This document shows positions 8,011-57,055 of a stretch of 64,000 bases of DNA, piece by piece. Location: contig OZ244039.1 of the NCBI GenBank assembly GCA_965215225.1, positions 1,725,353-1,789,352 on the forward strand, given 5' to 3'. The notes beneath the pieces are model-generated. The model had not been told where the DNA came from, did not search any database, and saw nothing but the letters and a program-made list of their open reading frames with translations. Positions within the stretch are counted from its first letter, which is position 1. Each line of letters opens with the position of its first letter. Position numbers and translations under genes: made by a program. This DNA comes from Gammaproteobacteria bacterium (lineage in GTDB: Bacteria; Pseudomonadota; Gammaproteobacteria; CBDBNL01; JAAOII01).

Positions 8011-9290
8011 CATTCTTTATTCCGCCTCTTCATTCCGTCCCTTTATTCCGCTTCTTTATTCCAGCTCTTTATTCCGCTTCTTCATTCCAGCTCTTTATTC
8101 CGTCCCTTCATCCCACCTCTTTATTTCGCTTCTCTATTCCGTCCCTTCATTCCACCTCTTTATTCTCTTTATTCCCCTCTTCATTCCACCTCTTTATTCC
8201 GTCTCCTTATTCCGCTTCTTCATTCCGCCTCTTTATTCCGCCTCTTTATTCCGCTCCTTTATTCCGTCCCTTTATTCCGCCTCTTTATTCCGTCCCCTTA
8301 TTCCGCTTCTTCATTCCACCTCTTTATTCCGCTTCTTCATTCCAGCTCTTTATTCCGTCCCTTCATTCCACCTCTTTATTCCGCCTCTTCATTCCGTCTC
8401 TTTATTCCGTCCCTTCATTCCACCTCTTTATTTCGCTTCTCTATTCCGTCTCTTTGTTCCGCCTCTTTACTTTGCCTCTCTATTCCGTCTCTTTGTTCCG
8501 CCTCTCTATTCCGTCTCTTTGTTCCGCCTCTTTATTCCACTTCTTCATTCCAGCTCTTTATTCCGCTTCTTCATTCCACCTCTTTATTCCGCCTCTTCAT
8601 TCCGTCCCTTTATTCCGCTTCTTTATTCCAGCTCTTTATTCCGTCCCTTCATTCTACCTCTTTATTTCGTTCCTTCATTCTGCCTCTCTATTCCGTCCCT
8701 TCATTCCGCCTCTTTATTCCCCTCTTCATTTCGCCTCTTTATTCCGCCTCTTTATTCCCCTCTTTATTCGGCCTCTTTATTCGGCCTCTTTATTCGGCCT
8801 CTTTATTCCACCTCTTTATTCCCCTCTTCATTCCGTCTCTTTATTCCGCCTCTTTATTCCGCCTCTTTATTCCGTCCCTTTATTCCGCCTCTTTATTTCG
8901 TCCCCTTATTCCGCTTCTTCATTCCACCTCTTTATTCCGTCCCTTCATCCCACCTCTTTATTTCGCTTCTCTATTCCGTCCCTTCATTCCACCTCTTTAT
9001 TCCGTCTCCCTATTCCGCCTCTTCATTCCGCCTCTTCATTCCGCCTCTTCATTCCGCCTCTTCATTCCGCCTCTTCATTCCGCCTCTTCATTCCGCCTCT
9101 TTATTCCCCTCTTTATTCGGCCTCTTTATTCCACCTCTTTATTTCGCCTCTTTATTCCGCCTCTTTATTCCCCTCTTTATTCGGCCTCTTTATTCCACCT
9201 CTTTATTCCGTCTCCTTATTCCGCTTCTTCATTCCGCCTCTTTATTCCGCCTCTTTATTCCGCTCCTTTATTCCGCCTCTTTATTCCAAT
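8011..9290. repeat. 15-bp tandem repeat array (consensus CTCTTTATTCCGCCT, about 85 degenerate copies)
   Basis: Period-15 repetition is visible directly, with variants such as cttcattccgcct and ctttattcggcct. All three plus-strand frames are open only because the unit lacks stop codons. Confidence 0.9.
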
Positions 9291-12080: not shown

Positions 12081-12729
12081 AATTCGTTCCTATAAGACTA
12101 TATGGTAATAGATAGCCTAAATACAAGTAATTTCTTGTTGCCTGTGCCTGTGCTTGCTGTGCTTGGCGGATGGTCTAAATAGGAGTGGTTTCACATAGAT
12201 GGGGTTGCGCTGGATAAGGATAGCGCAGACCCTTTTCCTCCATCACAGAAGCGGCCTCTCACAAAGGAAACTGCGTTGGATAATAAGCAATTAATCAACA
12301 ATGAACCGCCAACAAACCAATAATAAACAACAAATCAACAATTATTAGATAAAGATAACACATAAAACAATCATTCCATAACCCCCTAACAGACCATCTA
12401 TGAACAACTTATGAACAACAAATAAACAGAAAGGAAATCACCAAATTAGTTATTTTGGATAGGCTTTGTTTTCAGCTTGCTCATAATAAGCCTGCAACAG
12501 CAATGGAAGAAATTTTTGCTAAGATTTTGTATCACCTGTATCCCCCACAAGACGAGAGTGCGACTAGTTTTACTAGGTCAAATCAGTGCCCTTGTCCCTC
12601 CCCTTTTTGTTTAGACTTAGCGTCCTAGTATAGAGCTGGGATTATATAATCCCATCAAAGAGGTGATGCCATGATAGTGGGAATTTGCCATTAATAATAA
12701 GACCTTGTCCTCACAAGCGGGCCTAGCGG

Positions 12730-16579: not shown

Positions 16580-17707
16580 CTAGCGATCTAGAGCCGCTTT
16601 TCTTGCTTCCATATAGGGAAGTTCTGAAACACCATGCCACTCTATCGCATCATCGCGAAAAGCGCGGAAGGACTCATAGACTTCTCTAAACTGCGCATCC
16701 TCAGCCGCTAGGCTTTCTAGGGCTTGATTGCTGAGAACCGCCAGCTCATTCAAAACGCTCTGCGGGAAGCGGCGAAGTTGAACATTGTGCTCTGTTAATA
16801 ATATCCGCAAGGCGCGGTTATTATTAGCGGTAAACTCTGCCAGCATATCTTGATTTGCTACTCTGGCTGCCGTTCTTACTATCTCCTGCAGATCAGTCGG
16901 CAATGCTTCAAAGGCATCCTTATTAACCATAGCTTCCAAAGTAGTCCCTGGTTCATGCCAACCTGGATAATAGTAATAGCGGGCTGCCTTGTAGAAACCA
17001 AATGCCAGGTCGTTATAAGGACCTACCCATTCGGTTGCATCTATGGCGCCAGATTCCAGGCTTGAGAAAATCTCGCCACCAGGCAAGGCAATTGGGGTGC
17101 CGCCAGCTATTTGTATTATTTCACCTCCTAGGCCGGGGATACGCATCTTCAGACCCCTAATGTCAGCTAGGCTGTTAATTTCCTTATTGAACCAACCGCC
17201 CATTTGGACACCTGTATTACCCGCAGCCATAGGAATAAGATTAAAAGGAGCATAAACCTTCTCCCACAGCTCAAGACCACCGCCATGATAGAGCCAAGCA
17301 TTCATCTCTTGAGCGGTCAAGCCAAAAGGCACGGCCGCAAAGAACTGGACTGCTTCACCTTTGCCACGCCAGTAGTAGGCAGCGCCATGACCCATCTCAG
17401 CCGTGCCACGCGACACTGCATCAAACACTTCAAAAGCGCCTACCAGCTCGCCAGCACCATAGACCTGCACCTTAATACGCCCATTGGACATCTTCTCTAT
17501 CTGCTCGGCCAAAAAGTTAGCGCCGGTTCCAAGCCCCGGAAAATCTTTTGGCCAGGTAGTAACCATCTTCCACTCATATTGTTGAGCAGGTGCGGCCTGC
17601 CCGGCAGGTCTATCGGTTCTTTCGCCGTAACTATCCTCTTGCCTCTGCTGAGTGCAGCCTACAACAAGAAAAACAGCGGCTAGTAATAATAATAGTTTGT
17701 TAACCAT
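16580..17707 (-). CDS. dctP: TRAP transporter substrate-binding protein DctP family
   Basis: 375 aa with a lipoprotein-like signal (LVVGCTQQ). Its size and position in a dctP-dctQ-dctM order fit an extracytoplasmic solute receptor. Confidence 0.65.
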   Translation of the reverse strand: MVNKLLLLLAAVFLVVGCTQQRQEDSYGERTDRPAGQAAPAQQYEWKMVTTWPKDFPGLGTGANFLAEQIEKMSNGRIKVQVYGAGELVGAFEVFDAVSRGTAEMGHGAAYYWRGKGEAVQFFAAVPFGLTAQEMNAWLYHGGGLELWEKVYAPFNLIPMAAGNTGVQMGGWFNKEINSLADIRGLKMRIPGLGGEIIQIAGGTPIALPGGEIFSSLESGAIDATEWVGPYNDLAFGFYKAARYYYYPGWHEPGTTLEAMVNKDAFEALPTDLQEIVRTAARVANQDMLAEFTANNNRALRILLTEHNVQLRRFPQSVLNELAVLSNQALESLAAEDAQFREVYESFRAFRDDAIEWHGVSELPYMEARKAALDR

Positions 17708-17869
17708 ATCAGTTTCCTCATTAATAATAAATAATAGATAATAGATATTCTTATCAAATCCATCTTTTAATTATATCTTTTCTATGGTTTTTAAGTGCTG
17801 GAAACTGGTGAATAACTTCAACCTAAATTGGACTGGTTTTTGGTGAAAGTGCGCCACCATTTTTACTGG

Positions 17870-18148
17870 CGTGAGGGAGGGATGGAGGATAAGGAATGAG
17901 GAACGAAAGATGAGAGATGGAGGGTGAGGGATGAAAGATAAGGAATGAGGAATGAGGAATGGAGGATGAAAGATGAAGGATAGAGGATGAGGAATGAGGG
18001 ATGAGGAATGAGGAATGAGGGATGAGGAATGAGGAATGAGGAATGGAGGATGAAAGATGAAGGATAGAGGATGAGGAATGAGGGACGAAAGATGAGAGAT
18101 GAAGGATGAAGGATGAGAGATGAGAGATGAGAGATGAGAGATGAGAGC
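17870..18148. repeat. 8-bp microsatellite array (GATGARRG, about 35 units), upstream of ATPase copy 1
   Basis: Visible repetition: gatgaggaatgaggaatgagggatgaggaatg...gatgagagatgagagatgagag. Confidence 0.9.
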
Positions 18149-18342
18149 CTTCCCTATCTCAAGTCCGCTGAAGTAATTTCTCTCATTGAGTAGTTTTGCT
18201 TATTTAGTATGTATAATAAATGGCATATATTTTGAATCCATAATGGCGCCTTAATAACGCTTCAATAGGCCTCCTGTTGTGAGATCTTGTGCCTAAGGTC
18301 TGGATTCAAGCTTAAAAATAAACCAATAGCCTCGACAAAATT
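18149..18342 (+). promoter_or_regulatory. conserved roughly 200-bp leader/promoter region of the ATPase cassette (copy 1); contains TTGAGT...TATAAT-like elements
   Basis: The same block (ctctcattgagtagttttgcttatt...tataat(g/a)aatgg...gaatccataatggcgccttaataacgcttcaatagg...ttcaagcttaaaaataaacc) precedes all three ATPase genes. Confidence 0.4.
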
Positions 18343-19458
18343 ATGTTAACACGTTTTGAAGTTTCAAATTATAAGCTTTTCAAAAAGCCCCTCATTTTGA
18401 AACCCCTCCCTCAGATCTTGCTAATCGGAGGGAAAAACAATAATGGGAAAACTAGTATTTTAGAAGCCCTATTCCTAGCTTTCGATCAGTTAGAGCCAGC
18501 TATGCTCTGGAGACATTTTCGATGGAGAGGATTAGCTAAGGTTGATGCAACGTCCTTATTTGAATCGATCTATCACAACTTTGAATTGAATCGGCCCATT
18601 AAGTTTAAGTATACCTTGAATAAAAAAAAGCAAGAGGTGATATATAGATTTCACCGTGCCACTTCCCAATCTTTTGTAGAAAATAAAATCACTGATAAAG
18701 AATTTAGTAGCTTCTCCAATGAAAGTCAAAATCTATACAACCGGATAGTGATTACCGGTCTATCAGAGAACAAAAAAGTTCTAGAAATCCTTCTAATCCA
18801 AACTCAAGATGGTACTTACTTAGATTTTGGAAAAGACATGGGAATTGGAGAAAACATGGAAAAAGCCATAGAATTGATAAAGCAATTTAATCAAAACACC
18901 CGTGTTGGTTTTATCAGTGGAGTCGAATTCATAGCTGCCAAGGAAAATGCCAAGAATTATGACCAGCTAGCAAAGGCAAGGAAAACTGAAAAAATTCTTG
19001 AAGCCCTTCAGATTCTGGAACCAAAGCTAAGCTCTCTAAGCACCATTCAAATGGGGAAAAATTCTGTGATACACGGAGATGTAGAGGGACTCAAATCTTT
19101 GATTCCGTTGCCTTTGATGGGGGAAGGTATAAATCGTCTTATGTCTATTCTTCTGTCTATTTCTAACTTAGAAAATGGAATCCTCTTAATAGATGAGTTG
19201 GAAAATGGATTCCACTGTTCTCTTTTACCAAAGGTCATGAAAGTGATCGCAGAACATGCCCAGTCTAACAAAACACAGGTCATAGCCACCACACACAGTA
19301 GGGAACTGCAGCAAGCAACTCTGGAAAGCTTGCCTCATGATTTGCAAAATAAATTTCGCTATATGCGAATTGACAGAGATGGAGAGGAGTTTAAAATAAG
19401 AAACTATGATTTCGAAATTTTAACAACCGCCATTGAAATCAATTTGGAAACTCGTTAA
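18343..19458 (+). CDS. stand-alone ABC/AAA_21-type ATPase (OLD-family/AbiLi/AriA-like), copy 1
   Basis: Walker A GGKNNNGKTSILEA, an ABC-signature-like LMGEGINRLMSIL, Walker B/D-loop LLIDELENGFH and H-loop IATTHSRE. Confidence 0.75.
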   Translation: MLTRFEVSNYKLFKKPLILKPLPQILLIGGKNNNGKTSILEALFLAFDQLEPAMLWRHFRWRGLAKVDATSLFESIYHNFELNRPIKFKYTLNKKKQEVIYRFHRATSQSFVENKITDKEFSSFSNESQNLYNRIVITGLSENKKVLEILLIQTQDGTYLDFGKDMGIGENMEKAIELIKQFNQNTRVGFISGVEFIAAKENAKNYDQLAKARKTEKILEALQILEPKLSSLSTIQMGKNSVIHGDVEGLKSLIPLPLMGEGINRLMSILLSISNLENGILLIDELENGFHCSLLPKVMKVIAEHAQSNKTQVIATTHSRELQQATLESLPHDLQNKFRYMRIDRDGEEFKIRNYDFEILTTAIEINLETR

Positions 19459-19487
19459 ATATAAGTATCCATATAAAAAATATAGCA

Positions 19488-20141
19488 ATGAGTGACTCAA
19501 CAGAACACGAAAAAACCGAAACGATTGATGAAAAAAAGATTCTCATTGTGGAGGGCAAGGACGAAGAAAATTTTCTAAAAGCTCTATTTAAAATCCTAAA
19601 ACTCGAAAACATTCAAATAAAGTCGACTAGAGGGAAGGACCAAATAAATAGAAAAATAAAAGGATTGGTTCTAACCGAAGGTTGGGATGATGTCGAATCC
19701 ATAGGTCTAATTAGAGATGCAGATAAAAGTGCTAACCGCGCATTTGCTAGTCTTACTGGCGTGCTAAAAAGGAGCCGCCTTCCAATTCCGAATTCACCTG
19801 GCACTTTTTCTAGACAGATGCCAAAAAAAGGCAAACCAAGAACTGGAATTTTTATCATTCCCGATGGAAAAAATCAAGGAGCACTTGAATCCTTGTGCTT
19901 ATCCACAGTGAAGGAGGATAATCCAAAAATTGTGGAATGCATTGATAGCTTTATGAAGTGCAATAAAGATCTGAAAAGCAGATATAAAAAACCCAGAAAC
20001 GAAGATAAAGCCAGATGCAAAGCCTTTCTATCCCTTATGGAAGAGGACACCTCTTCTTTAGGGGTGGCAGCTCAAAAGAATTACTGGGATTGGAAATCAA
20101 ATGGTCTCAAACCCTTAATAGAGTTTTTAAAAGAATTATAA
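19488..20141 (+). CDS. small TOPRIM-like partner protein (AbiLii/RloB/DUF4276- or DUF4435-like), copy 1
   Basis: The N-terminal ILIVEGKDEENFL carries the TOPRIM-type acidic residue and the downstream GLIRDADK is a DxD-like motif. It has a Cys/His cluster (CLSTV...CIDSFMKC...C) and is co-oriented 29 bp after the ATPase. Confidence 0.55.
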   Translation: MSDSTEHEKTETIDEKKILIVEGKDEENFLKALFKILKLENIQIKSTRGKDQINRKIKGLVLTEGWDDVESIGLIRDADKSANRAFASLTGVLKRSRLPIPNSPGTFSRQMPKKGKPRTGIFIIPDGKNQGALESLCLSTVKEDNPKIVECIDSFMKCNKDLKSRYKKPRNEDKARCKAFLSLMEEDTSSLGVAAQKNYWDWKSNGLKPLIEFLKEL

Positions 20142-20174
20142 AACTAGGCTGCCTCTAGCTGAAATCCGATAAGA

Positions 20175-20393
20175 GCCTCCCCTATCTCGAGTCAGCCGAA
20201 ACAATTTCTCTCATTGAGTAGTTTTTGCTTATTCATTAGGTATAATGAATAGATTCTCTCTCATAAGAGGGATGAATATATTTTGAATCCATAATAGCGC
20301 CTTAATAACGCTTCAATAGGTTTCGTGTTGTGAGATCTTGTGCCTAAGGTCTGGATTCAAGCTTAAAAATAAACCAATAGCCTCGACAAAATT
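20175..20393 (+). promoter_or_regulatory. conserved leader/promoter region of the ATPase cassette (copy 2), without an 8-bp array
   Basis: Same conserved block as 18149-18342. Confidence 0.4.
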
Positions 20394-21509
20394 ATGTTAA
20401 CACGTTTTGAAGTTTCAAATTATAAGCTTTTCAAAAAGCCCCTCATTTTGAAACCCATCCCTCAGATCTTGCTAATCGGAGGGAAAAACAATAATGGGAA
20501 GACTAGTATTTTAGAAGCCCTATTCCTAGCTTTCGATCAGTTAGAGCCAGCTATGCTCTGGAGACATTTTCGATGGAGAGGATTAGCTAAGGTTGATGCA
20601 ACGTCCTTATTTGAATCGATCTATCACAACTTTGAATTGAATCGGCCCATTAAGTTTAAGTATACCTTGAATAAAAAAAAGCAAGAGGTGATATATAGAT
20701 TTCACCGTGCCACTTCCCAATCTTTTGTAGAAAATAAAATCACTGATAAAGAATTTAGTAGCTTCTCCAATGAAAGTCAAAATCTATACAACCGGATAGT
20801 GATTACCGGTCTATCAGAGAACAAAAAAGTTCTAGAAATCCTTCTAATCCAAACTCAAGATGGTACTTACTTAGATTTTGGAAAAGACATGGGAATTGGA
20901 GAAAACATGGAAAAAGCCATAGAATTGATAAAGCAATTTAATCAAAACACCCGTGTTGGTTTTATCAGTGGAGTCGAATTCATAGCTGCCAAGGAAAATG
21001 CCAAGAATTATGACCAGCTAGCAAAGGCAAGGAAAACTGAAAAAATTCTTGAAGCCCTTCAAATTCTGGAACCAAAGCTAAGCTCTCTAAGCACCATTCA
21101 AATGGGGAAAAATTCTGTGATACACGGAGATGTAGAGGGACTCAAATCTTTGATTCCGTTGCCTTTGATGGGGGAAGGTATAAATCGTCTTATGTCTATT
21201 CTTCTGTCTATTTCTAACTTAGAAAATGGAATCCTCTTAATAGATGAGTTGGAAAATGGATTCCACTGTTCTCTTTTACCAAAGGTCATGAAAGTGATCG
21301 CAGAACATGCCCAGTCTAACAAAACACAGGTCATAGCCACCACACACAGTAGGGAACTGCAGCAAGCAACTCTGGAAAGCTTGCCTCATGATTTGCAAAA
21401 TAAATTTCGCTATATGCGAATTGACAGAGATGGAGAGGAGTTTAAAATAAGAAACTATGATTTCGAAGTTTTAACAACCGCCATTGAAATCAATTTGGAA
21501 ACTCGCTAA
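20394..21509 (+). CDS. stand-alone ABC/AAA_21-type ATPase, copy 2 (about 99% identical to copy 1)
   Basis: Only a few substitutions relative to copy 1 (KPLPQ to KPIPQ, FEILT to FEVLT). Confidence 0.75.
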   Translation: MLTRFEVSNYKLFKKPLILKPIPQILLIGGKNNNGKTSILEALFLAFDQLEPAMLWRHFRWRGLAKVDATSLFESIYHNFELNRPIKFKYTLNKKKQEVIYRFHRATSQSFVENKITDKEFSSFSNESQNLYNRIVITGLSENKKVLEILLIQTQDGTYLDFGKDMGIGENMEKAIELIKQFNQNTRVGFISGVEFIAAKENAKNYDQLAKARKTEKILEALQILEPKLSSLSTIQMGKNSVIHGDVEGLKSLIPLPLMGEGINRLMSILLSISNLENGILLIDELENGFHCSLLPKVMKVIAEHAQSNKTQVIATTHSRELQQATLESLPHDLQNKFRYMRIDRDGEEFKIRNYDFEVLTTAIEINLETR

Positions 21510-21533
21510 ATATTGGTATATTATGTAAAAAAT

Positions 21534-22205
21534 ATGACAACGAGCAACTCAACAGAACGCGAAAACCTCGAAACGATTGATAAAGAAAAAATTCTCATTG
21601 TGGAAGGCAAAGACGAAGAAAATTTTCTAAAAGCTCTATTTAAGATCCCACAACTTGAACCACAACTCGAAAATATCCAAATAAAGCCACTTGAAGGGAA
21701 GGATCAATTACATAAAAGAATGAAGGCATGGGTTCTAACCTCAGGTTGGGATGATGTCAAATCCATAGGTCTAATTAGAGATGCAGATAAAAGTGCTAAG
21801 AGTGCATTTGATAGTATTGCTGGTGTGCTAAAAAGAAACGGCCTTTCAATTCCAAATTCACCTGGCACCTTTTCTAAACAGATTCCAAAAAAGGGCAAGC
21901 CAAGGACTGGGATCTTTATCATTTCCAATGGAAAAGATCATGGAACACTTGAATCCTTGTGCTTATCTACAGTGAAGGAGAATAATTCGAAAATGGTGAA
22001 ATGCATTGACAGTTTTATGAAATGCAATAAAGACCTGGACACTGAGTATGAAAAACCCAAAAACGAAGATAAAGCCAGATGCAGAGCCTTTCTCTCCCTT
22101 ATGGAAGAGGATACCCCTTCTTTAGGGGTGGCAGCTCAAAAGAATTACTGGAATTGGGAATCAAATAGTCTCAAACCCTTAATAGAGTTTTTAGAACAAT
22201 TATAA
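21534..22205 (+). CDS. small TOPRIM-like partner protein, copy 2 (about 75% aa identity to copy 1)
   Basis: The ORF track starts at 21513 (MVYYVKNM...). The Met at 21534 (MTTSNSTE...) aligns with the copy-1 start. The ILIVEGKDEENFL and IRDADKSAK motifs are conserved. Confidence 0.55.
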   Translation: MTTSNSTERENLETIDKEKILIVEGKDEENFLKALFKIPQLEPQLENIQIKPLEGKDQLHKRMKAWVLTSGWDDVKSIGLIRDADKSAKSAFDSIAGVLKRNGLSIPNSPGTFSKQIPKKGKPRTGIFIISNGKDHGTLESLCLSTVKENNSKMVKCIDSFMKCNKDLDTEYEKPKNEDKARCRAFLSLMEEDTPSLGVAAQKNYWNWESNSLKPLIEFLEQL

Positions 22206-22344
22206 AAACCAAGCTATCTCTAGCTGAAATCCATAGAGGCAATTCACTATATCTTTTCTATAGTTTTAAGTGCTAGAAACTGATGTATAACTTCAATTGG
22301 ACTGGTTTTTGGTGAAAGTGTGCCATCATTTTTGCTGGCGTGAG

Positions 22345-22615
22345 GGAGGGATGACATGATGAAGGATGAGGGATGAAAGATGAAAGATGAAAGATGAAAG
22401 ATGAAAGATGAAAGATGAAAGATGAAAGATGAAAGATGAAAGATGAGAGATGAGAGATGAGAGATGAGAGATGAAGGATGAAGGATGAAGGATGAGAGAT
22501 GAGGGATGACATGATGAAGAATGAGAGATGAAGGATGAAAGATGAAGGGTGAAAGGTGAAGAATGAAGAATGAAGGATGAGGGATGAGGGATGGAGGATG
22601 GAAGATGAAAGATAA
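22345..22615. repeat. 8-bp microsatellite array (GATGAAAG/GATGAGAG), upstream of ATPase copy 3
   Basis: gatgaaagatgaaagatgaaag... shows period 8. It is preceded by the same 60-bp block (ggactggtttttggtgaaagtg...ctggcgtgagggagggatg) as the array at 17870. Confidence 0.9.
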
Positions 22616-22847
22616 GAGACTTCTCTATCTCAAGTCCGTTGCAACAATTTCTCTCATTGAGTAGTTTTGCTTATTCATTAAGTATAATGAATGGCTTCTC
22701 TCTCATAAGAGGGATGAGTGTATTTTGAATCCATAATGATGCCTTAATACAATAACCAATAACGCTTCAATAGGCCTCTTATTGTGAGATGTAGCGTCTA
22801 TGGTTTGGGTTCAAGCTTAAAAATAAACCTATAACCTATACAAACTT
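22616..22847 (+). promoter_or_regulatory. conserved leader/promoter region of the ATPase cassette (copy 3)
   Basis: Same conserved block as at 18149 and 20175, but more diverged. Confidence 0.4.
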
Positions 22848-23951
22848 ATGTTAACACATTTTGAAGTCTCAAATTTCAAGCTTTTCAAAAAGCCCTTCAT
22901 TTTGAAATCCATCCCTCAGATTTTGCTAATTGGAGGGGAAAACAATAGTGGGAAAACTAGTATTTTGGAAGCCCTATTACTACCTTTCGATCAGTTAGAT
23001 TCGGGTATGTTCGTGAAGCATCTTCAATGGCGAGGATTAACCAATATTGAAGTGGAATCTTTATTTGAATTGATATATCACAACCTTGAATCGAATCAGC
23101 CTATTAAGTTTAAATATACCCTTAATGGAAAAAAGCAAGAGGTGACATATACATTTCACCAAGATGACTCCCCGCCTATTACAGAAACAGACGATGATAT
23201 CATTGATATTGGGAGAGAGATTCTTAGCTTATCCAGTGAAACTCAAAAGCTATACGACCGGATAGTTATTTCCTGTCTATCAAAGAACAAAGAAGTTTTT
23301 CAACTCCATCTAATGGACACCCAAGAGGGTATTTACCTAGATTTTGGCAAAAACACAAAAAAAGCTGTCGAATCGATAGCACAATTTAATCAAGATTTCT
23401 ATGTTAGTTTTATCAGTGCAACTCAACCCACATCTTCCAGAGGAAATGCCGAGAGGTTTGACCAGTTAGCAAGGGCAAGGAAAACTGAAAAGCTTCTTGA
23501 AGCCCTTCAAATTATGGAACCAAAGCTAAAATCTCTAAGCACCATTGAAATGGGGGAAGAACCGGTAATATATGGAGATATGGAGAGACTCAAGATTCCG
23601 TTGTCTTTGATGGGTGAGGGTATAAATCGTCTTATGTCCATTCTTCTATCCATTTCTTGCTCAGGAAATGGAATCACCTTAATAGATGAGTTGGAAAATG
23701 GATTCCACTATTCTCTTTTACCGAAGGTCATGAAAGTGATCGCAGAACATGCCCAGTCTAACAGGGCGCAGGTGATAGCCACCACATACAGTAGGGAACT
23801 GCTGCAGGCAACTGTGGAAAGCTTGCCTCAGGATTTACAAGATAAATTTCGCTATATGCGAATTGACAGAGATGGAGATGAGTTTAAAATAAGAAACTAT
23901 GATTTCAAAGTTTTAGCAACCTCCCTTGAAGCCAATTTCGAAACTCGCTGA
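22848..23951 (+). CDS. stand-alone ABC/AAA_21-type ATPase, copy 3 (diverged, about 70% identity; no partner gene downstream)
   Basis: Walker A GGENNSGKTSILEA, LLIDELENGFHYS and IATTYSRE (H-loop His replaced by Tyr). Confidence 0.7.
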   Translation: MLTHFEVSNFKLFKKPFILKSIPQILLIGGENNSGKTSILEALLLPFDQLDSGMFVKHLQWRGLTNIEVESLFELIYHNLESNQPIKFKYTLNGKKQEVTYTFHQDDSPPITETDDDIIDIGREILSLSSETQKLYDRIVISCLSKNKEVFQLHLMDTQEGIYLDFGKNTKKAVESIAQFNQDFYVSFISATQPTSSRGNAERFDQLARARKTEKLLEALQIMEPKLKSLSTIEMGEEPVIYGDMERLKIPLSLMGEGINRLMSILLSISCSGNGITLIDELENGFHYSLLPKVMKVIAEHAQSNRAQVIATTYSRELLQATVESLPQDLQDKFRYMRIDRDGDEFKIRNYDFKVLATSLEANFETR

Positions 23952-24039
23952 ATATCCCATCCATTCTCTTTCTTGATAAGCGCAATTAGTTAGAAGAACT
24001 ATTATTAATGCGTTTTTTAGTGCCCTGTTAGTGATGGCG

Positions 24040-24870
24040 CTAGCCGAGATCATGGGTGGAGGATATTAATGATAGATTTAGTAAGCTAGCAAGAAACTGG
24101 GAAAGAGCTCGGAGCTGGTGAGCTAGGAGGATGGGTGGGGGATATTAATGATAGCAAAAATAGGCTAGCGAGAAATTGGAAATAGCTCGGAGCTGGTGAG
24201 CTAGGATGATGGATGGGACATATTAATCATAGATTTAATAGGCTAGCAAGAAACTGGAAATGGGTCGGAGCTGGTGAGCTAGGATGATGGATGGGGGATA
24301 TTTAGGGGATATTAATGATAGATTTAATAGGCTAGAAAATAGGCTAGCAAGAAACTGGAAATGGGGCGGAGCTGGTGAGCTAGGAGGATGGATGGGAGAT
24401 ATTTAGGGGATATTAATGATAGCAAAAATAGGCTAGAAAATAATCTAGCAATAAATTAGAAATGGGGCGGAGCTGGTGAACTAGGAGGATGGATGGGGGA
24501 TATTTAGGGGATATTAATGATAGCTTTAATAGGCCAGCAATAAATTGGGAATAGCTCGGAGCTGGTGAGCTAGGAGGATGGATGGGGGATATTTAGGGGA
24601 TATTAATGATAGCTTTAATAGGCCAGCAAGAAACTGGGAATAGCTCGGAGCTGGTGAGCTAGGATGATGGATGGGGGATATTTAGGGGATATTAATGATA
24701 GCAAAAATAGGCTAGAAAATAAGCTAGCAATAAATTGGAAATGGGGCGGAGCTGGTGAGCTAGGAGGATGGATGGGGGATGGGAAATATTAATGATAGCA
24801 AAAATAGGCTAGTAAATAGGCTAGTAAGAAATTGGAAATGGGTCGGAGCTGATGAGCTAGGATGGAGGCA
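24040..24870. repeat. about 88-100-bp tandem repeat array (about 9 units: ...ggctagcaagaaactggaaatggggcggagctggtgagctaggaggatggatgggggatatttaggggatattaatgatag...)
   Basis: Visible periodic recurrence of gagctggtgagctagga and atattaatgatag. Confidence 0.85.
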
Positions 24871-26076
24871 CTAGAGTCCGAGTAGGGTCATGCCGGGATA
24901 TTCAAGGAATTCCTTAATATGGACTAGAAATTCAACTGCGGTTTTGCCATCAATCATCCTGTGGTCATAGGACAGAGCGAGATACATCATAGGCAGAATA
25001 ACCACCTCGCCATTAACAGCAACTGGGCGCTCCTGAATCTTATGCATACCGAGGATGCCAGTTTGAGGCGGATTAATGATAGGAGTAGACATTAAGGAGC
25101 CAAAGACGCCACCATTAGAAATAGTAAAGGTGCCTCCTTGTAGGTCTTCCAACGTAAGTTTCGCCTCTTGGGCTTTTTTGCCATAGCTTCTAATAGTCTC
25201 TTCAATCTGTGCCAATGACATAGATTGGGCATCCCTGAGGATAGGAACTACCAGCCCGCGAGGGGAAGAGACCGCAATGCCTATATCTTGATAATTACAA
25301 TAGACTATGTCGGTGCCATCTATATGGGCATTTACCTGCGGAAATTTATAAAGAGCAGAGCAAACTGCTTTGACAAAAAAGGACATGAAGCCCAGCCGAA
25401 CTCCATATTTCTCTTCAAACGGCTTCTTGTATCTAGTGCGCAATTCCATCACAGGTTGCATATTTACCTCGTTGAAAGTAGTGAGTATGGCAGCCTGCCG
25501 TTGTGATTCAACTAGTCTTTTTGCCACGCTCATTCGCAGCCGTGTCATAGGCACTCGCTTCTCAACTCTTTGATGGCCGCCCCTCTGTGCTATGTCCTGT
25601 TTGGTAATGAAAGGGCCTTGATTGTGGGTCTCCACTTCTACCCCGGTCTCAGCTGCCAAGCGCCGAGCGGCCGGACCCATCTTGCCAGCTAGTCTTCCAG
25701 CTAGCTCTGTTTCACTTGTTTTGGCAGCAGTTGTATGGGATGAAAGATTTTCAGTAGCCTCTGGTGGCTCGGCTAGTTTTTCCTGTGGTGCTGATTCAAT
25801 CTCACTTGATTTAGGTGGGGGCTTCTTCGCTGGCTCTTCTTTTGTCTTTTCATAATTGGCTATTACCTGTTGCGCCTTAACTGTGCTGCCTTCGGCGACA
25901 AGTATGCTAGTCATAATGCCCGAACTTGGCGCTGGCACTTCCAACACTATCTTATCGGTTTCCACATCTACTAGGGGTTCATCACGGCGGAAAGACTCGC
26001 CCTCCTTCTTATGCCAACGAGCAATGGTGCCCTCCTCTATTGATTCGGGAAAGACTGGGACTCTTATATCTGTCAT
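24871..26076 (-). CDS. sucB: dihydrolipoyllysine-residue succinyltransferase (2-oxoglutarate dehydrogenase E2)
   Basis: Lipoyl domain ([25 protein letters not shown]...[15 protein letters not shown]), an Ala/Pro-rich linker, a PSBD, and the catalytic domain ending DHRMIDG. The ORF track extends to 26121 ([21 protein letters not shown]) through the 9-bp repeats, so the start is ambiguous. Confidence 0.9.
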
Positions 26077-26079
26077 GCC

Positions 26080-26335
26080 TGCCATATCCGCCATATCCGC
26101 CATATCTGCCAGATACACCACTTCTTCTGTGTCTCTACCATATTTGCTATCTCCTTATATCCGCTATCTCTGCCATATCCGCCATACCCTCGATATCTAC
26201 CATACTCGCCATATCCGCCATAGCTGCCATATCCGCCATACCCTCGATATCTGCCATATCTGACATATCTGCCAGATACACCACTTCTTCTGTATCTCTA
26301 TCATATTTGCCATCTCCTCATATTCGCTATCTCTG
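26080..26335. repeat. 9-bp tandem repeats (GCCATATCC on the plus strand, GGAUAUGGC on the mRNA) in the sucA-sucB intergenic region
   Basis: Runs such as gccatatccgccatatccgccatatctgcc. Two blocks are separated by ccagatacaccacttcttctgt(g/a)tctct. Confidence 0.85.
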
Positions 26336-26361
26336 CTATTTCTCCATCGTCATTATATTCA

Positions 26362-42656: not shown

Positions 42657-44972
42657 CTAGGGAAACAGCTCGTCTAAACGGGTCTGATTTAGTTCGGGTT
42701 GTCCAGTGCTATTCAAATACCACCAGCTACGCCATTCGGCAGGAGCTATGGGAGTGCATTCAATAGCGGGATACTCATCCGACTCACCAAAATCCCAGAT
42801 AAGATTGGCATCGATGTCTTCACCAGTTTCAATGCTCCCACTATTATCCCTATCACACCAAACAGCTAATGGTTCGTCAATCATACTACCATCGTCAAAC
42901 ACAACTGGGTTCTCGTCCCATTTGACATAAATCCCTGTATAGGGAGTTGGCATCTGAAGTTGACTACTAGTCTTGGCTTCACCATGGTTGCCATCAGCAT
43001 GAGTGACGCCAGTAGCATTGTACCAATAGGAATTAACTCCAGCCCCACTTCCTTCCCCAACCAGCATACGAGTAATACTGCCTGAGACCACATAAGAATA
43101 AGCAACCTTGCTAGAAGAGTCAAATCTTCCCGCCAGACCACCTATCGGATTCAGCCCGCTCAACTCATCCACCACAACCGATGAAGAATAAATCTGAGCC
43201 GATGGACCCCACCCCACCAGACCGCCTATATAAAGACCATTAATCCCACTCACTTCACCCGCCACAACCGAAGATGAAAAAACACGAGCTGAAGCACCAA
43301 ACCCCACCAGACCGCCTATAACATTACCAACCCCTCCCACCGCACCTGCCACAACCGATGAAGAATGAATCAGGCTCCCTTCACCATTCCCTACCAGACC
43401 GCCTATATTACCAGCACCCCCAAACACCATACCCATCACAACCGATGAAGAATAAATCCGAGCGGATTGACCATGGCCCACCAGACCACCCACATTTTGA
43501 GCCCCGGACGTCTCACCCACCACAACTGAAGAAGAATAAATCCGAACGGATTGACCATGGCCCACCAGACTACCTATATGGCTGCCAATACCTCTCACCC
43601 TATCCACCACAACCGAAGCAGAATGAATCCGAGCCGATTCACCATCCCCTACCAAACCGCCTACCCTAATCCTACCTATCACTGCCTCGGCACTAAGAGT
43701 CAAATTACGAATCTCTGAATTATCAGCTATATGGCCAAACAAACCCACACAATCCTCACCTGAACGACTGATATTCAAATCACTAATCATAAAACCATTG
43801 CCTTCAAAGGTCCCACTAAAAGCAGTTCCTTGACATCCGGGACCACTAGCTGTATCATGACCCAAGGGTTGCCAGCCTTTGCCGCCATCGTCATCCGCAT
43901 AGTCCGCAAGACTTATATTCGCAACCAGCTCATAACCAGAACAAGAAGTGATGCCGTCGGCACCACCACAGCCAGTTTGGTCAAGGTTGCCACCCGCCAT
44001 GGAACGATAGCCGCTGCCATCCAGTTGATGACGGACCGCATTTAATTCCTCATGTGTTCTTATCTCTATCAACCCATCCCCATCATCATCTACATCCTCC
44101 ACCGCATCCTCACAACCATCGCCATCTTTGTCGTTGTCAGAGGTAGAGACAAAATTTGAATTTTGACTGGTAGGACATTGGTCTGAATCATCTCTTATAC
44201 CGTCATTATCGTCATCATCACTGGGACCACCTGTTCCCGGATCGCCATTCCCAGGATCAGGCGGGGGCTCCGGCTCCCCAGCTAACTTCTCATCTAAAAA
44301 GTCCGCTATGCCATTGCCATCTCCATCCTCCCCTATGGCTATCCGCCCACGAACCGAACCACCTGTCGTATCATTATAGTCCGCTAAATTCCTCTCTACC
44401 GGCCGCCACGCTATTCCCCTATCACCAACCCGAGCACCATCCGCCAGTGTCTCTTCATAGGAAAAAGTAAATTCATATTCCCTCCCCGACACAAGACCCC
44501 CAAAAATATAACCCGATATCAAATCCTCCAACGAAAGACCTGGACTCATCTCCTGTCCAGTAAGCTTCCCTTCCGCATCATAAGACCTGGCATTAATACG
44601 GACCGCCGTTATGTTCCTACCAGCATAGGCCGCCCCATTTGTCAAAGTAATACTAACCCCGCCATCAAAAGGACTGAACGCTAATACAAAGGGGTCGTCT
44701 TCCGAACTGTCACTCCCCGAACCACCGCCTGAACCTCCACCGCCGCCGCCAGCACAAGCAGTAAAAACAACTGATAAGAAACCCGCCGCAACTAAGAAGA
44801 AGAGAAACCGTCCCAGCCGACTAAGCGGAATCAAGGGGGTATGATCTAGGCACAAGGCCAGATAAGAGAAGTAGAAGCGGAACCTAGCCGCTCCGAATAA
44901 TAAAAATTGGGTTGCTTTTGCCAATTTTACATTTGCCATAATAATTCTTTTTGTCATTTTCATCTTCACCAT
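42657..44972 (-). CDS. surface lipoprotein with thrombospondin type-3 Ca-binding repeats and GLUG repeats (paralog 1, 771 aa)
   Basis: Lipobox (FLSVVFTAC), a poly-Gly/Ser linker, Asp-rich TSP3-like repeats (DDDDNDGIRDDSDQCP...DNDKDGDGCEDAVEDVDDDGDGL), about 10 GLUG units (GGLVG.G.SARI.SSSVV) and a conserved C-terminal domain (AVWCD.DNSGSIE...IWDFGESDEYPAI.CTP.AP..WR.WW). Confidence 0.75.
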   Translation of the reverse strand: MVKMKMTKRIIMANVKLAKATQFLLFGAARFRFYFSYLALCLDHTPLIPLSRLGRFLFFLVAAGFLSVVFTACAGGGGGGSGGGSGSDSSEDDPFVLAFSPFDGGVSITLTNGAAYAGRNITAVRINARSYDAEGKLTGQEMSPGLSLEDLISGYIFGGLVSGREYEFTFSYEETLADGARVGDRGIAWRPVERNLADYNDTTGGSVRGRIAIGEDGDGNGIADFLDEKLAGEPEPPPDPGNGDPGTGGPSDDDDNDGIRDDSDQCPTSQNSNFVSTSDNDKDGDGCEDAVEDVDDDGDGLIEIRTHEELNAVRHQLDGSGYRSMAGGNLDQTGCGGADGITSCSGYELVANISLADYADDDGGKGWQPLGHDTASGPGCQGTAFSGTFEGNGFMISDLNISRSGEDCVGLFGHIADNSEIRNLTLSAEAVIGRIRVGGLVGDGESARIHSASVVVDRVRGIGSHIGSLVGHGQSVRIYSSSVVVGETSGAQNVGGLVGHGQSARIYSSSVVMGMVFGGAGNIGGLVGNGEGSLIHSSSVVAGAVGGVGNVIGGLVGFGASARVFSSSVVAGEVSGINGLYIGGLVGWGPSAQIYSSSVVVDELSGLNPIGGLAGRFDSSSKVAYSYVVSGSITRMLVGEGSGAGVNSYWYNATGVTHADGNHGEAKTSSQLQMPTPYTGIYVKWDENPVVFDDGSMIDEPLAVWCDRDNSGSIETGEDIDANLIWDFGESDEYPAIECTPIAPAEWRSWWYLNSTGQPELNQTRLDELFP

Positions 44973-45334: not shown

Positions 45335-46990
45335 TGAGAAGGGAAGAAAAGAAGCAGATTAGCCAAAGGGGGCTAGTTGGAGTGGGCCTGTCCTAGCTGT
45401 TTGGGTTGAGGCTAGGGAAGCAGATTAACCAAAGGGGCTAGTTGGAGTGGGACTGTCCTAGCCGTTTCGGTTGAGGCTAGGGAAGCAGATTAGCCAAAGG
45501 GGGTTAGTTGGAGTGGGCCTGTCCTAGCTGTTTGGGTTGAGGCTAGGGAAGTAAATTAGCCAAAGGGGGCTGGTTGGAATGGGTCTGTCCTAGCCTTTTG
45601 GGTTGAGGCTAGGGAAGTAAATTAGCCAAAGGGGGCTGGTTGGAATGGGTCTGTCCTAGCTGTTTGGGTTGCAGCTAGGGAAGCAAATTAGCCAAAGGGG
45701 GCTAGTTGGAGTGGGTTTGTCCTAGCTGTTTGGGTTGAGGCTAGGGAAGCAAATTAGCCAAAGGGAGCTAGTTGGAGTGGGACTGTCCTAGCCGTTTCGG
45801 TTGAGGCTAGGGAAGTAAATTAGCCAAAGGGGGCTGGTTGGAGTGGGTCTGTCCTAGCCTTTTGGGTTGAGGCTAGGGAAGTAAATTAGCCAAAGGGGGC
45901 TGGTTGGAATGGGTCTGTCCTAGCCTTTTGGGTTGAGGCTAGGGAAGTAAATTAGCCAAAGGGGGCTGGTTGGAATGGGTCTGTCCTAGCTGTTTGGGTT
46001 GAGGCTAGGGAAGCAGATTAGCCAAAGGGGGCTAGTTGGAGTGGGCCTGTCCTAGCCGTTTCGGTTGAGGCTAGGGAAGCAAATTAACCAAAGGGGGCTA
46101 GTTGGAGTGGGACTGTCCTAGCCGTTTCGGTTGAGGCTAGGGAAGCAGATTAACCAAAGGGGGCTAGTTGGAGTGGGACTGTCCTAGCTGTTTGGGTTGA
46201 GGCTAGGGAAGCAAATTAGCCAAAGGAAGCTAGTTGGAGTGGGACTGTCCTAGCTGTTTGGGTTGCAGCTAGGGAAGCAGATTAACCAAAGGGGGCTAGT
46301 TGGAGTGGGCCTGTCCTAGCTGTTTGGGTTGAGGCTAGGAAAGCAAATTAGCCAAAGGGGGCTAGTTGGAGTGGGTCTGTCCTAGCCGTTTGGGTTGAGG
46401 CTAGGAAAGCAGATTAACCAAAGGGGGTTAGTTGGAGTGGGCCTGTCCTGGCCGTTTCGGTTGAGGCTAGGGAAGCAGATTAGCCAAAGGGGTCTAGTTG
46501 GAGTGGGTCTGTCCTAGCTGTTTGGGTTGAGGCTAGGGAAGTAAATTAGCCAAAGGGGGCTAGTTGGAGTGGGACTGTCCTAGCTGTTTGGGTTGAGGCT
46601 AGGGAAGCAAATTAGCCAAAGGGGGCTAGTTGGAGTGGGCCTGTCCTAGCTGTTTGAGTTGAGGCTAGGGAAGCAGATTAGCCAAAGGGGGCTAGTTGGA
46701 GTGGGCCTGTCCTAGCTGTTTGAGTTGAGGCTAGGGAAGCAAATTAACCAAAGGGGGCTAGTTGGAGTGGGCCTGTCCTAGCTGTTTGGGTTGCAGCTAG
46801 GGAAGCAAATTAGCCAAAGGGGGTTAGTTGGAGTGGGTCTGTCCTAGCCGTTTCGGTTGAGGCTAGGGAAGCAAATTAACCAAAGGGGGCTAGTTGGAGT
46901 GGGTCTGTCCTAGCTGTTTGGGTTGAAGCTAGGGAAGCAGACTAGCCAAACGGGTTTATTTGGAGTGCCCCTGTCCTAGCCGTTTCGGTT
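45335..46990. repeat. 66-bp tandem repeat array (about 25 units; consensus GGCTAGGGAAGCAGATTAGCCAAAGGGGGCTAGTTGGAGTGGGCCTGTCCTAGCTGTTTGGGTTGA)
   Basis: Visible periodicity. Each unit has inverted elements gctaggg/cctagc and derives from the 3'-terminal coding sequence of the adjacent GLUG gene. Confidence 0.9.
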
Positions 46991-46994
46991 GGAG

Positions 46995-48929
46995 CTATTG
47001 AAGCAGATCGTCCAAACGAGCCCGGTCTAGTTCGGGTTTGCCACTCGCATTCAAAGACCACCAATCACGCCAATCGTCAGGAGCTAGCGGAGTGCAGCGA
47101 ATGGCGGGATATTGACTTGAAGTGCCGAAGTTCCAGATGAGATTGCCAGGGGTTTGTTCATCTGACTCTATGCTCCCACTGTTATCTTCATCACACCAGA
47201 CCGCCAATGGCACGTTCCCATCACCAAACAGATCTGTGTTATCGTCCCAAGTGGCATAAATATCTGTATAGTTAGTTGGACTGCGGAGATCGCTAGTGGT
47301 CTTGGCTTCACCATGATTGCCATTAGTGACGCCACTAGTATCACTGTCCCAATAGGAAGCAACTCCAGTCCCACTTCCTTGCCCAACCAGCGGCATAGTA
47401 GCACTGCCTGAGACCATGTAAGAATAAGCAACCCGACCAGCAGCAAAATCTCCCACCAGACCACCCGTAGGAATACCCCCTCTCACCTCACCCACCACAA
47501 CCGAAGAAGAATGAATTCGAGCACCTAGACCAGCCCCCACCAGACCACCTGTACTACTCTGTCCACTCACCTGAGCCGCTATAGCCGAAGAAGAAAAAAT
47601 GCTAGCATTTTGACCAAATCCTACCAGTCCGCCTGAATAAATACCAGCTACATCTGACGCTCTCACCTCAGCTGCCACAACCGAAGAAGAATAAATTCGA
47701 GCATTTGAACCATCCCCCACCAGACCACCTATAGTACTACTCCCGCTCACCTCAGCTGCCACCACCGAAGAAGAAACAATCCGAGCCGAGTTACCATCCC
47801 CCACCAGACCACCTACCCCAAACTTACCTATCACTGCCTCGGCACGAAGAATCAAATTGCGAATGGTTGCACCAGGGGCAAGATGCCCAAATAAACCCAC
47901 ACAATCTTCACCTGAACGACTAATGCTCAAATTGCTAATCATAAAACCATTGCCTTCAAAGGTCCCACTAAAAGCAGTTCCTTGACATCCTCTGGCAACT
48001 CTATCTGTATCTTGACCCAAGGGCTGCCAGCCTTTGCCGCTATCATAATCCACATAGTCTGCCAGACTTATATTATCAACCAGCTCATAACCAGAACAAG
48101 AAGTGATGCCGCCGGTACCACCACAGCCAGTGGTGTCGGCCGCCCCAGTATCCAATAGCTTGCGCCCGCTACCATCCAGTTGATGACGCACCGCATTTAA
48201 TTCCTCATGTGTTCTTATCTCTATCAACCCATCCCCATCATCATCTACATCAACATCATCTAGATAGGCATCATTATCATCATTATCATCTACACTATCC
48301 GCTCGCCTATCTCCATCCGTATCCAGCCCCGACCGAATACCGTCCCCGGCGTGATCATCATGATTCTCAGGCCAAACAAAAACTATATTCACCTCCTGCT
48401 CCCTGCTATCGCTAAGAATCCCAGTAATCTGAAACTTCCAATCTCGGTCAGCTAGCCCAGTAAAATCATAGCTGTCATTAGCAAATTCGTCTATGTTGAT
48501 ACTTCTCTCTACAACCTCGCTTCCACTAGTTGCCGTAATCTTCAAAGAAGTGAAACTGCTAAAGTCCGATTGGCTGCCTATTTGAAACCCACCCCTTATA
48601 GGAGCAAAAGTGAGACTCGCGTTAAAAACTCCCAGAACCATCGCGCCGTTTCCTGGACCATTGCCATCCATCGAACTATTGTTTACCGGACCACCATCAC
48701 CCGAACTGCCACCACCCCCGCCGCCAGCACAAGCAGTAAGAACAACTGATAAGAAACCAGCCGCAACTAAGAAGAAGAGGAACCGTCCCAGCCTACTAAG
48801 CAGAGTCAGGGGGGCATGATAAGAGAAATAGAAGCAGAACCTAGCCGCTCCGAATAATAAGAATTGGGTTGCTTTTGCCATTTTTATATTTGCCATAATA
48901 GTTCCTTTTACCATTTTTACATTCTCCAT
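46995..48929 (-). CDS. surface lipoprotein with TSP3-like and GLUG repeats (paralog 2, 644 aa)
   Basis: Same N-terminal region, lipobox LTAC and conserved C-terminal domain as paralog 1, with a different central region. It has Asp-rich DDNDDNDAYLDDVDVDDDGDGL and GLUG units. Confidence 0.75.
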   Translation of the reverse strand: MENVKMVKGTIMANIKMAKATQFLLFGAARFCFYFSYHAPLTLLSRLGRFLFFLVAAGFLSVVLTACAGGGGGGSSGDGGPVNNSSMDGNGPGNGAMVLGVFNASLTFAPIRGGFQIGSQSDFSSFTSLKITATSGSEVVERSINIDEFANDSYDFTGLADRDWKFQITGILSDSREQEVNIVFVWPENHDDHAGDGIRSGLDTDGDRRADSVDDNDDNDAYLDDVDVDDDGDGLIEIRTHEELNAVRHQLDGSGRKLLDTGAADTTGCGGTGGITSCSGYELVDNISLADYVDYDSGKGWQPLGQDTDRVARGCQGTAFSGTFEGNGFMISNLSISRSGEDCVGLFGHLAPGATIRNLILRAEAVIGKFGVGGLVGDGNSARIVSSSVVAAEVSGSSTIGGLVGDGSNARIYSSSVVAAEVRASDVAGIYSGGLVGFGQNASIFSSSAIAAQVSGQSSTGGLVGAGLGARIHSSSVVVGEVRGGIPTGGLVGDFAAGRVAYSYMVSGSATMPLVGQGSGTGVASYWDSDTSGVTNGNHGEAKTTSDLRSPTNYTDIYATWDDNTDLFGDGNVPLAVWCDEDNSGSIESDEQTPGNLIWNFGTSSQYPAIRCTPLAPDDWRDWWSLNASGKPELDRARLDDLLQ

Positions 48930-56521: not shown

Positions 56522-57055
56522 TAGGCTATTTAATCCGCAAATGATAATATCATATGGCTAAAAATTATTAAACTTAGCATTTAATTATGACAAGAAAATG
56601 GCAAGGATCTGCAATACCAGTGCATGGTTATGGCCGCCGCCAAGAAGGACTATCTTTTTCTTTATCATCAATAGGCTATTTAATCCGCAAATGATAATAT
56701 CATATGGCTAAAAATTATTAAACTTAGCATTTAATTATGACAAGAAAATGGCAAGGATCTGCAATACCAGTGCATGGGTATGACCGCCGCCAAGAAGGAC
56801 TATCTTTTTCTTTGTCATCAACAGGCTATTTAATCCGCAAATGATAATATCATATGGCTAAAAATTATTAAACTTAGCATTTAATTATGACAAGAAAATG
56901 GCAAGGATCTGCAATACCAGTGCATGGGTATGGCCGCCGCCAAGAAGGACTATCTTTTTCTTTATCATCAATAGGCTATTTAATCCGCAAATGATAATAT
57001 CATATGGCTAAAAATTATTAAACTTAGCATTTAATTATGACAAGAAAATGGCAAG
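56455..57055. repeat. 150-bp tandem repeat x4 spanning the divergent promoter region and the first codons of both flanking genes
   Basis: The unit ...caataccagtgcatgggtatggccgccgccaagaaggactatctttttctttgtcatcaataggctatttaatccgcaaatgataatatcatatggctaaaaattattaaacttagcatttaattatgacaagaaaatggcaaggatctg recurs at 56461, 56611, 56761 and 56911. Confidence 0.9.

Follow-up and report, generated by a model that had tools for sequence, protein, structure and literature searches.

Mosaic divergence in a tandem ATPase-DUF3226 cassette of a gammaproteobacterium points to recombination between the ATPase genes

In PARIS, ATPase and Toprim nuclease have separate genes next to each other (PMC10568477), and the ATPase AriA sequesters the nuclease AriB, which is freed when a phage protein is sensed (PMC10802264, PMC11464382). 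Systems of the ATPase-plus-Toprim type, such as AbiL, are structurally distinct from one another (PMC10802264). A two-gene cassette of an ABC-type ATPase and a DUF3226 Toprim-like partner was studied here in 64,000 nucleotides of a gammaproteobacterial contig (assembly GCA_965215225.1, contig OZ244039.1, positions 1,725,353 to 1,789,352); this whole stretch is called the window, and its numbering is used below. The cassette occupies a low-GC island (37% GC for the cassette versus 47-48% for the flanking genes) between the dctMQP genes of a tripartite ATP-independent periplasmic (TRAP) transporter (minus strand, ending at 17707) and sucB/sucA (minus strand, from 24871). Three units follow each other on the plus strand: unit 1 with the ATPase A1 (18343-19458, 371 aa) and the partner B1 (19488-20141, 217 aa), unit 2 with A2 (20394-21509, 371 aa) and B2 (21534-22205, 223 aa), and unit 3 with the orphan ATPase A3 alone (22848-23951, 367 aa), after which no partner gene is found. 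The initial annotation had described units 1 and 2, which are real, and had missed unit 3, whose ATPase proved informative; it ascribed the unequal divergence of neighbouring genes either to gene conversion of the ATPases or to diversifying selection on the partner. Very probably, a stretch of about 1.2 kb was copied between units 1 and 2 and homogenised the ATPase, and the partner has not evolved unusually fast.

By its sequence the ATPase is an ABC/Rad50-like P-loop protein. A1 carries a Walker A motif (GGKNNNGKTS), a Walker B motif (ILLIDELE) and an H-loop (TTHS), it matched Pfam AAA_15 (E 2e-22) and also AAA_21, and its closest solved relatives by sequence were PtuA, OLD, GajA, AriA and Rad50/RecF. 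Among the PADLOC models AbiLi was best (PDLC02336, E 5.9e-45, full length), and PDC-M38A was also matched (PDLC04611, E 2.9e-40). In A3 the H-loop reads TTYS (codon ~314), whereas 33 of the 34 aligned family members, all except A3, have the histidine; the TTYS version of A3 was also found in the related haplotype L001 presented below. With the histidine replaced by tyrosine, A3 may not hydrolyse ATP normally.

Both partners passed the gathering threshold of DUF3226 (PF11536, 27 bits) by a wide distance, B1 with 129.4 bits (E 2e-37) and B2 with 123.3 bits. The profile of this family matched PH0156 (PDB 2P62) weakly (E 2e-5), and B1 was recognised by the PADLOC model PDC-M38B (PDLC04624, E 5.8e-17). 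No NCBIfam model lay above its cut-off for the ATPase or the partner. The AlphaFold2 (AF2) model of B1, with a predicted local distance difference test score (pLDDT) of 93.6, was compared by Foldseek, and the best hits were the C-terminal Toprim region of class 2 OLD, 6NK8 (E 2.5e-4), and 6NJX, with a probability of 1.0 and a template modelling (TM) score of ~0.5. The key residues of B1 are E22, D77-x-D79 and Cys137/151/158. Among 57 aligned homologues D77 was invariant, E22 and D79 were nearly invariant, and the three cysteines were invariant or nearly so. AF2 model, Foldseek and the 57-sequence alignment together give the partner the combination of a Toprim fold with a conserved glutamate and a DxD motif that marks likeness to the OLD family.

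The locus belongs to the PADLOC candidate PDC-M38: both proteins match the models, their genes are adjacent on the same strand with a gap of 29 nt between A1 and B1, and the order is A then B. PDC-M38 is a bioinformatic candidate only, and the operon found here differs by its tandem triplication with an orphan ATPase. The likeness to PARIS lies in an ATPase and a Toprim nuclease on separate adjacent genes and in an ATPase that matches the AriA models (E 1e-21) and AriA structures. This match is weaker, however, than those to AbiLi or PDC-M38A, and the match to AriA in the PDB (E 5e-4) covers the Walker B region only. The cassette ATPase, with 371 aa (~42 kDa), is ~100 aa shorter than AriA (about 53-55 kDa), and the partner is a DUF3226 protein (~220 aa) instead of the DUF4435 protein AriB (~35 kDa), with no DUF4435 match in Pfam. 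The sole PARIS match of the partner in PADLOC was to the fused AriAB model (E 0.002, residues 14-82, ~70 residues), and its structural model weakly resembles chain 8ux9_A of the PARIS complex (Foldseek E 0.05). With AbiL of Lactococcus (AbiLi plus the RloB-like Toprim protein AbiLii) the cassette shares the two-gene ATPase plus Toprim-like layout and an ATPase of AbiLi type; the partner, however, had no AbiLii/RloB match at E <= 0.01 in PADLOC and belongs in Pfam to DUF3226, not to RloB. Since the partner is neither of AbiLii nor of AriB type, the cassette is neither AbiL nor PARIS. Partner fold, the E...DxD motif and the ABC/Rad50-like ATPase type recall class 1/2 OLD (P2 Old, Burkholderia and Xanthomonas OLD, GajA), but OLD proteins of classes 1-3 hold ATPase and Toprim in one polypeptide, whereas two genes are present here, and sequence identity is 14-16%. 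The most fitting description of the pair is that of a split system of ATPase and Toprim protein that resembles OLD and corresponds to the PADLOC candidate PDC-M38. Probably it works in a way similar to PARIS: an ATPase oligomer would keep the Toprim nuclease inactive, and a phage cue would lead to its ATP-dependent release. On grounds of homology, a reading as defence system appears reasonable.

This pair is widely distributed. Across many phyla, the DUF3226 gene lies directly 3' of the ATPase gene in 68 of 70 loci, always as a single pair, and in every locus examined the two are separate open reading frames (ORFs) with their own start and stop. Tandem triplication with an orphan ATPase was not seen in any other locus examined. 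In two relatives the neighbouring genes comprise NYN nucleases, AbiEi, a ThiF/ubiquitin-like module, insertion sequence (IS) elements and a methylase. Among named relatives of the cassette, the nearest reach 40-49% amino acid identity and stem from metagenome-assembled genomes (MAGs) labelled Bdellovibrionales bacterium. In the literature collection searched, no paper mentioned DUF3226 or PDC-M38.

Within the window the contrast between ATPase and partner identity far exceeds chance. The genes A1 and A2 are 99.6% identical on the nucleotide level (5 of 1116 positions differ) and 99.5% on the amino acid level (2 of 371), in agreement with the ~99% first reported. B1 and B2 share 86.5% of nucleotides and 76% of amino acids, close to the earlier values of ~85% and 75%, so that identities indeed are not uniform across the unit. 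A3 is more distant from A1 and A2, with 83% nucleotide and 69% amino acid identity. The best-matching fragment, 18275-19454 in unit 1 and 20326-21505 in unit 2, comprises 1180 bp with 4 mismatches. On its flanks, identity drops to 87.4% over 135 aligned nucleotides on the 5' side and 86.0% over 713 nucleotides on the 3' side, a divergence outside the tract of 13.8%. No fragment like it arose in 10,000 permutations, and a binomial calculation gave a P of 4e-69. The tract ends match the boundaries of the ATPase gene closely: on the 5' side the tract extends 68 nt beyond the gene, and on the 3' side it stops 4 nt short of the gene end. The ~200-bp leaders upstream of the ATPases, L1 of unit 1 (18140-18342) and L2 of unit 2 (20168-20393, within a spacer-plus-leader region of 20142-20393), had been regarded as almost identical; this applies to their last 68 nt only (18275-18342 in L1), and the ~135 nt further 5' show 85-87% identity and an indel of 22-23 nt.

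Frameshift artefacts behind the partner differences were considered and are ruled out: both partner ORFs are intact and co-linear, and their indels are in-frame only, 2 aa at the N-terminus and 4 aa at the PQLE repeat. The VEGKDEE and RDADKS motifs and the three invariant cysteines are kept in both proteins, as had been observed. Two further details of the initial annotation had to be revised. The supposed extra PQLEPQLE insertion is actually a deletion of 4 aa in B1, as the long form occurs in the haplotype L002 and in the unit-2 partner of L001, and B2 starts at the ATG at 21534, homologous to the start of B1, instead of the TTG at 21513.

Synonymous divergence (dS) and its relation to nonsynonymous divergence (omega) were obtained as Nei-Gojobori estimates. 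For A1 and A2 dS was 0.013; for B1 and B2 it was 0.268, with an omega of 0.45. Comparison of A1 or A2 with A3 gave dS values of 0.26-0.27 and an omega of 0.66, and unconverted ATPase pairs overall had an omega of 0.57-0.70. The dS of the partner thus equals the baseline of paralogous units, hence the ATPase pair is the outlier and the partner no anomaly. The second cause proposed initially, diversifying selection on a partner that would act as effector or sensor against anti-defence proteins of phages, is now very improbable; in this reading selection would have sped up the partner, and the ATPase would simply be conserved. In its favour, omega within the cassette (0.45-0.70) is well above that of the flanking housekeeping genes dctP, dctM, sucA and sdhB in related genomes (0.02-0.18), the proportions of nonsynonymous and synonymous differences (pN and pS) are about equal in partner codons 41-80, and at least three deep partner lineages coexist (B1, B2 and the unit-2 partner of L001). 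Protein-level selection cannot, however, produce the ~20-fold gap in silent-site divergence between the ATPase pair and the partner (0.013 versus 0.268), because silent and non-coding differences were lost in the tract as well. The non-coding leader outside the 68 nt is as diverged as the partner. The omega of the partner is below 1 and also below the 0.66 of the unconverted ATPase, and all family-invariant residues are kept in both partners. At equal dS the unconverted ATPase copies change more than the partner, with an amino acid identity of 69%, and pN is about equal to pS in the middle region of the ATPase, codons 41-200. The mosaic divergence therefore lies in unequal coalescence times of the genes and not in unequal selection. 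Omega of the cassette as a whole lies above the housekeeping level and below 1, and the few sequences at hand cannot separate relaxed constraint from site-limited positive selection.

Further haplotypes, named L001, L002 and L003, were recovered through exact-protein look-ups only. A clade-specific ATPase alignment gave no matches in genome contigs and metagenome contigs, and an exact 30-mer common to all ATPase copies had no match in metagenome contigs. L002, a Joint Genome Institute (JGI) metagenome contig with flanks 87-90% identical to those of the window, carries a single unit in the order dctMQP-A-B-sucB. The paralogs of the window differ from one another by dS values of 0.15-0.34 and from their L002 ortholog by 0.35-0.57; they are mutually closer than to L002, which places the triplication at this site and after that split. 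L001, an assembly of the European Nucleotide Archive (ENA) with flanks 96-99% identical, contains three units in the same order. Its unit 1 was 100% identical to that of the window in every 100-column segment but two (98.9% and 99.0%), and its unit 3 was 99.6% identical. The unit-2 ATPase of L001, in contrast, is 90% identical to A1, with a patch of 100-200 nt at 96-100%, and the unit-2 partner is 82-86% identical to B1 and B2. Units 1 and 2 of L001 show the unhomogenised state of the ATPases with smaller patches. Two partner genes of this strain carry lesions: the unit-1 partner (L001 11146-11795) is a pseudogene with TCA changed to TAA at codon 4 and a 1-nt deletion, and the unit-2 partner (L001 13186-13866) reads IVGGKDEE, with glycine for the catalytic Toprim glutamate. 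Together with the H-loop tyrosine of A3, these changes argue for some relaxation of constraint.

The third haplotype, L003, is a 6.5-kb contig on which dctP and a heptamer repeat of ~1 kb are followed by a leader of L1 type. Its ATPase has every one of the five states specific to A2, and its partner agrees with B2 in 99.9% of nucleotides. Unit-1 sequence gives way to unit-2 sequence between 18275 and 18405, within the identical tract. L003 is the product expected of unequal crossing-over between A1 and A2, whereas an ancestral single unit is the less parsimonious reading. The sites also conflict among themselves: 18 of the 19 sites that set A1 and A2 against L003 lie at positions 651-892 of the ATPase gene, four of them shared-derived, and five other sites group A2 with L003. 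Such clustered patterns are incompatible with a single tree, so at least one further exchange took place between ATPase copies. Phylogenetic incongruence with the positional orthologs was thus found across the four haplotypes.

The same data bear on the assembly. That two strain haplotypes were joined in tandem, or that repeat copies were falsely homogenised by polishing in a MAG, is hardly credible. The source does appear to be a metagenome-assembled chromosome, and strain mixtures exist, as the contigs L003 and L004, both fragmented at the cassette locus, stem from a single sample. The independent assembly L001, however, has the same order of three units, and the junction of B1 to L2 is present in two assemblies, L001 and the window. 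The five differences between A1 and A2 recur independently, the A1 states in L001 and the A2 states in L003, which makes both copies real. Copies of 86% identity would moreover not be cross-polished inside one gene only.

The findings support, as the origin of the mosaic, recombination that homogenised the ATPase and not diversifying selection on the partner. The evidence consists of a sharp tract beyond chance, with dS collapsing from ~0.27 to 0.013 inside and remaining at the paralog baseline outside, of the unhomogenised state in L001 and of the switch within the tract in L003; the first of the two causes offered initially, gene conversion of the ATPases, is the one supported. In the sequence of events that we propose, a low-GC operon of an ABC-type ATPase and a DUF3226 Toprim-like nuclease would have been acquired and duplicated twice in place. 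The units would then have diverged to ~83-87% nucleotide identity (dS ~0.27), and the third copy would have lost its nuclease. Recombination between the ATPase paralogs would later have overwritten ~1.18 kb of one unit with the sequence of the other, from 68 nt 5' of the ATPase start codon to the last codon, while leaders and partners kept their older divergence. The event may have been a non-reciprocal gene conversion or an equivalent double crossover. It would be very recent, because the dS of 0.013 between A1 and A2 is below the between-strain dS of the flanks (0.04-0.14). The identical tract in turn would serve as substrate for unequal crossing-over that removes or swaps units, a process presumably continuing in the population.

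A different course of recombination has to be weighed here, namely a very recent duplication of the whole unit followed by replacement of B1 and L2 (~19459-20325) by a divergent allele of another strain, with recombination anchored in the ATPases. We regard it as unlikely. The divergent material between the identical ATPases does form one contiguous block, and recombination between strains is evident from the comparison of the window with L001, in which units 1 and 3 are 99.6-100% identical, dctM 96-97% and unit 2 79-92%. L003, with its L1 leader, ATPase and B2, could represent the unduplicated ancestor. The donor, on the other hand, would have had to possess a tandem array beforehand, with an A-type ATPase on either side, and the differences of L1 from L2 at the 5' side and of B2 from B1 are explained no better than by conversion. 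A2 and L003 share five states against A1, and the patch at 651-892 would still need a separate conversion. Moreover, duplication with replacement is likewise recombination, so that selection again would not be the cause.

Several points weigh against homogenisation by copying between units 1 and 2. Duplication with replacement of B1 and L2 gives the same pattern, and L003 could then be an ancestral single unit instead of a deletion product. Only four haplotypes were found, and the grouping of A2 with L003 consists of one clear shared-derived site and the flanking B2 orthology. Either A1 or A2 may have been the donor, and no sampled strain pairs B1 or B2 with a clearly native ATPase that is not of A type. 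Both tract ends lie at gene boundaries, which could hint at selection on the surviving tracts. For a role of the PDC-M38 or ATPase-DUF3226 family in phage defence, no experimental data were found in the literature searched. An extended version of the copying account would treat the array as an immune locus built from modules. Through repeated conversion the ATPase would stay identical across units and could serve the diverged effectors B1 and B2, A3 would be a hydrolysis-impaired regulatory or decoy subunit, the tract ends would reflect selection on surviving tracts, and strains would reshuffle sensor and effector modules by unequal crossing-over. This extension is decidedly unlikely.

Compared with concerted evolution of tandem paralogs in general, the locus shows the sharp tract of near-identity, the collapse of dS, the incompatible site patterns and the variants of unequal crossing-over in the population; the only unusual feature is that the tract ends coincide with the boundaries of the ATPase gene. 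The case is one of ordinary concerted evolution in an uncharacterised, already catalogued candidate system, and the triplicate array, with its orphan ATPase of altered H-loop, is a curiosity of this locus.

The noncoding parts of the island are repetitive and partly conserved. A heptanucleotide repeat (GATGAGG-like or GATGAGR-like, 17846-18179) lies just 5' of the unit-1 leader, and a second array of this heptanucleotide (22316-22623) is found 5' of unit 3, whose leader L3 extends from 22611 to 22847 on the plus strand. The array before unit 1 measures ~330 nt in the window versus ~1 kb in L003 (L003 3250-4280), therefore its length is highly polymorphic, and an effect of array length on cassette expression is possible. 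Between A3 and sucB lies a tandem array of 78-101-nt repeats (24048-24880) that L002, with its single unit, lacks. Searches by blastn and tblastn for remains of a third partner gene 3' of A3 detected none, also not within this array. The ~200-nt leader is conserved, including that of the single-copy L002 (4400-4632), with the pattern TTCCCTATCTC...AATTTCTCTCATTGAGTAG...GTATAAT...ATTTTGAATCCATAATG...GTGAGAT...TTCAAGCTTAAAAATAAACC; in L1 the conserved TATAAT is located at 18212-18217. A segment of 22 nt with a short palindrome is present in L2, L3 and L002 and is missing only from L1. The leader could be a regulatory 5' untranslated region. An Rfam scan of 17600-25000 gave chance-level matches only, with no known RNA element in leaders or repeats.

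A sigma-70-like site with an 11-of-12 match (TTGACA, 16-nt spacer, TAAAAT) is situated within the 3' end of each ATPase gene, at 19370-19397, 21421-21448 and 23863-23890, ~90 nt 5' of the partner start. The ATPase codons 281-360, in which it sits, have the lowest synonymous divergence. This site may be an internal promoter for the nuclease gene. Its function is not claimed, because the scan for promoters and terminators found such sites no more often than in shuffled sequence.

Beyond the cassette, the window is unusually rich in long tandem arrays, at 8014-9287, 45351-47005, 49324-50896, 56463-57062, 43164-43663, 47482-47814 and 51403-51636. Their units include a 13-nt repeat in ~99 copies, a 66-nt repeat in ~25 copies at one site and in ~13+7 copies at another, a 150-nt repeat in 4 copies and related repeats of 84-87 nt at three sites. 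On the minus strand, 9-nt repeats (GCCATATCC-like, 26057-26342) at the 5' end of and upstream of sucB enter the start of the annotated ORF, which obtains a repetitive N-terminus; the sequence suggests either a mis-called start or a repeat-variable N-terminus. In L001 an insertion of ~2.8 kb (L001 1884-4013, corresponding to ~12450-12690 of the window) is present between clpB and an NMT1_3 gene and missing from the window. It encodes a SocA/Panacea-domain protein and has two N6_N4 methyltransferase genes, one with T5orf172/MUG113, and marks, ~6 kb away from the cassette, a second defence-like spot that varies between strains.

For the duplicated cassette, a tempting arms-race reading of the effector is removed. 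Neighbouring genes of a duplicated defence cassette can diverge unequally through recombination alone, and synonymous divergence is worth checking before selection is invoked. The PDC-M38-type pair is uncharacterised, widespread and strictly linked across many phyla, and it is present here as a strain-variable tandem array. Experiments could be guided by its natural variants, namely two diverged nucleases that share one type of ATPase, an orphan ATPase whose H-loop is altered and, in the sister strain, a nuclease with the catalytic Glu exchanged for Gly.

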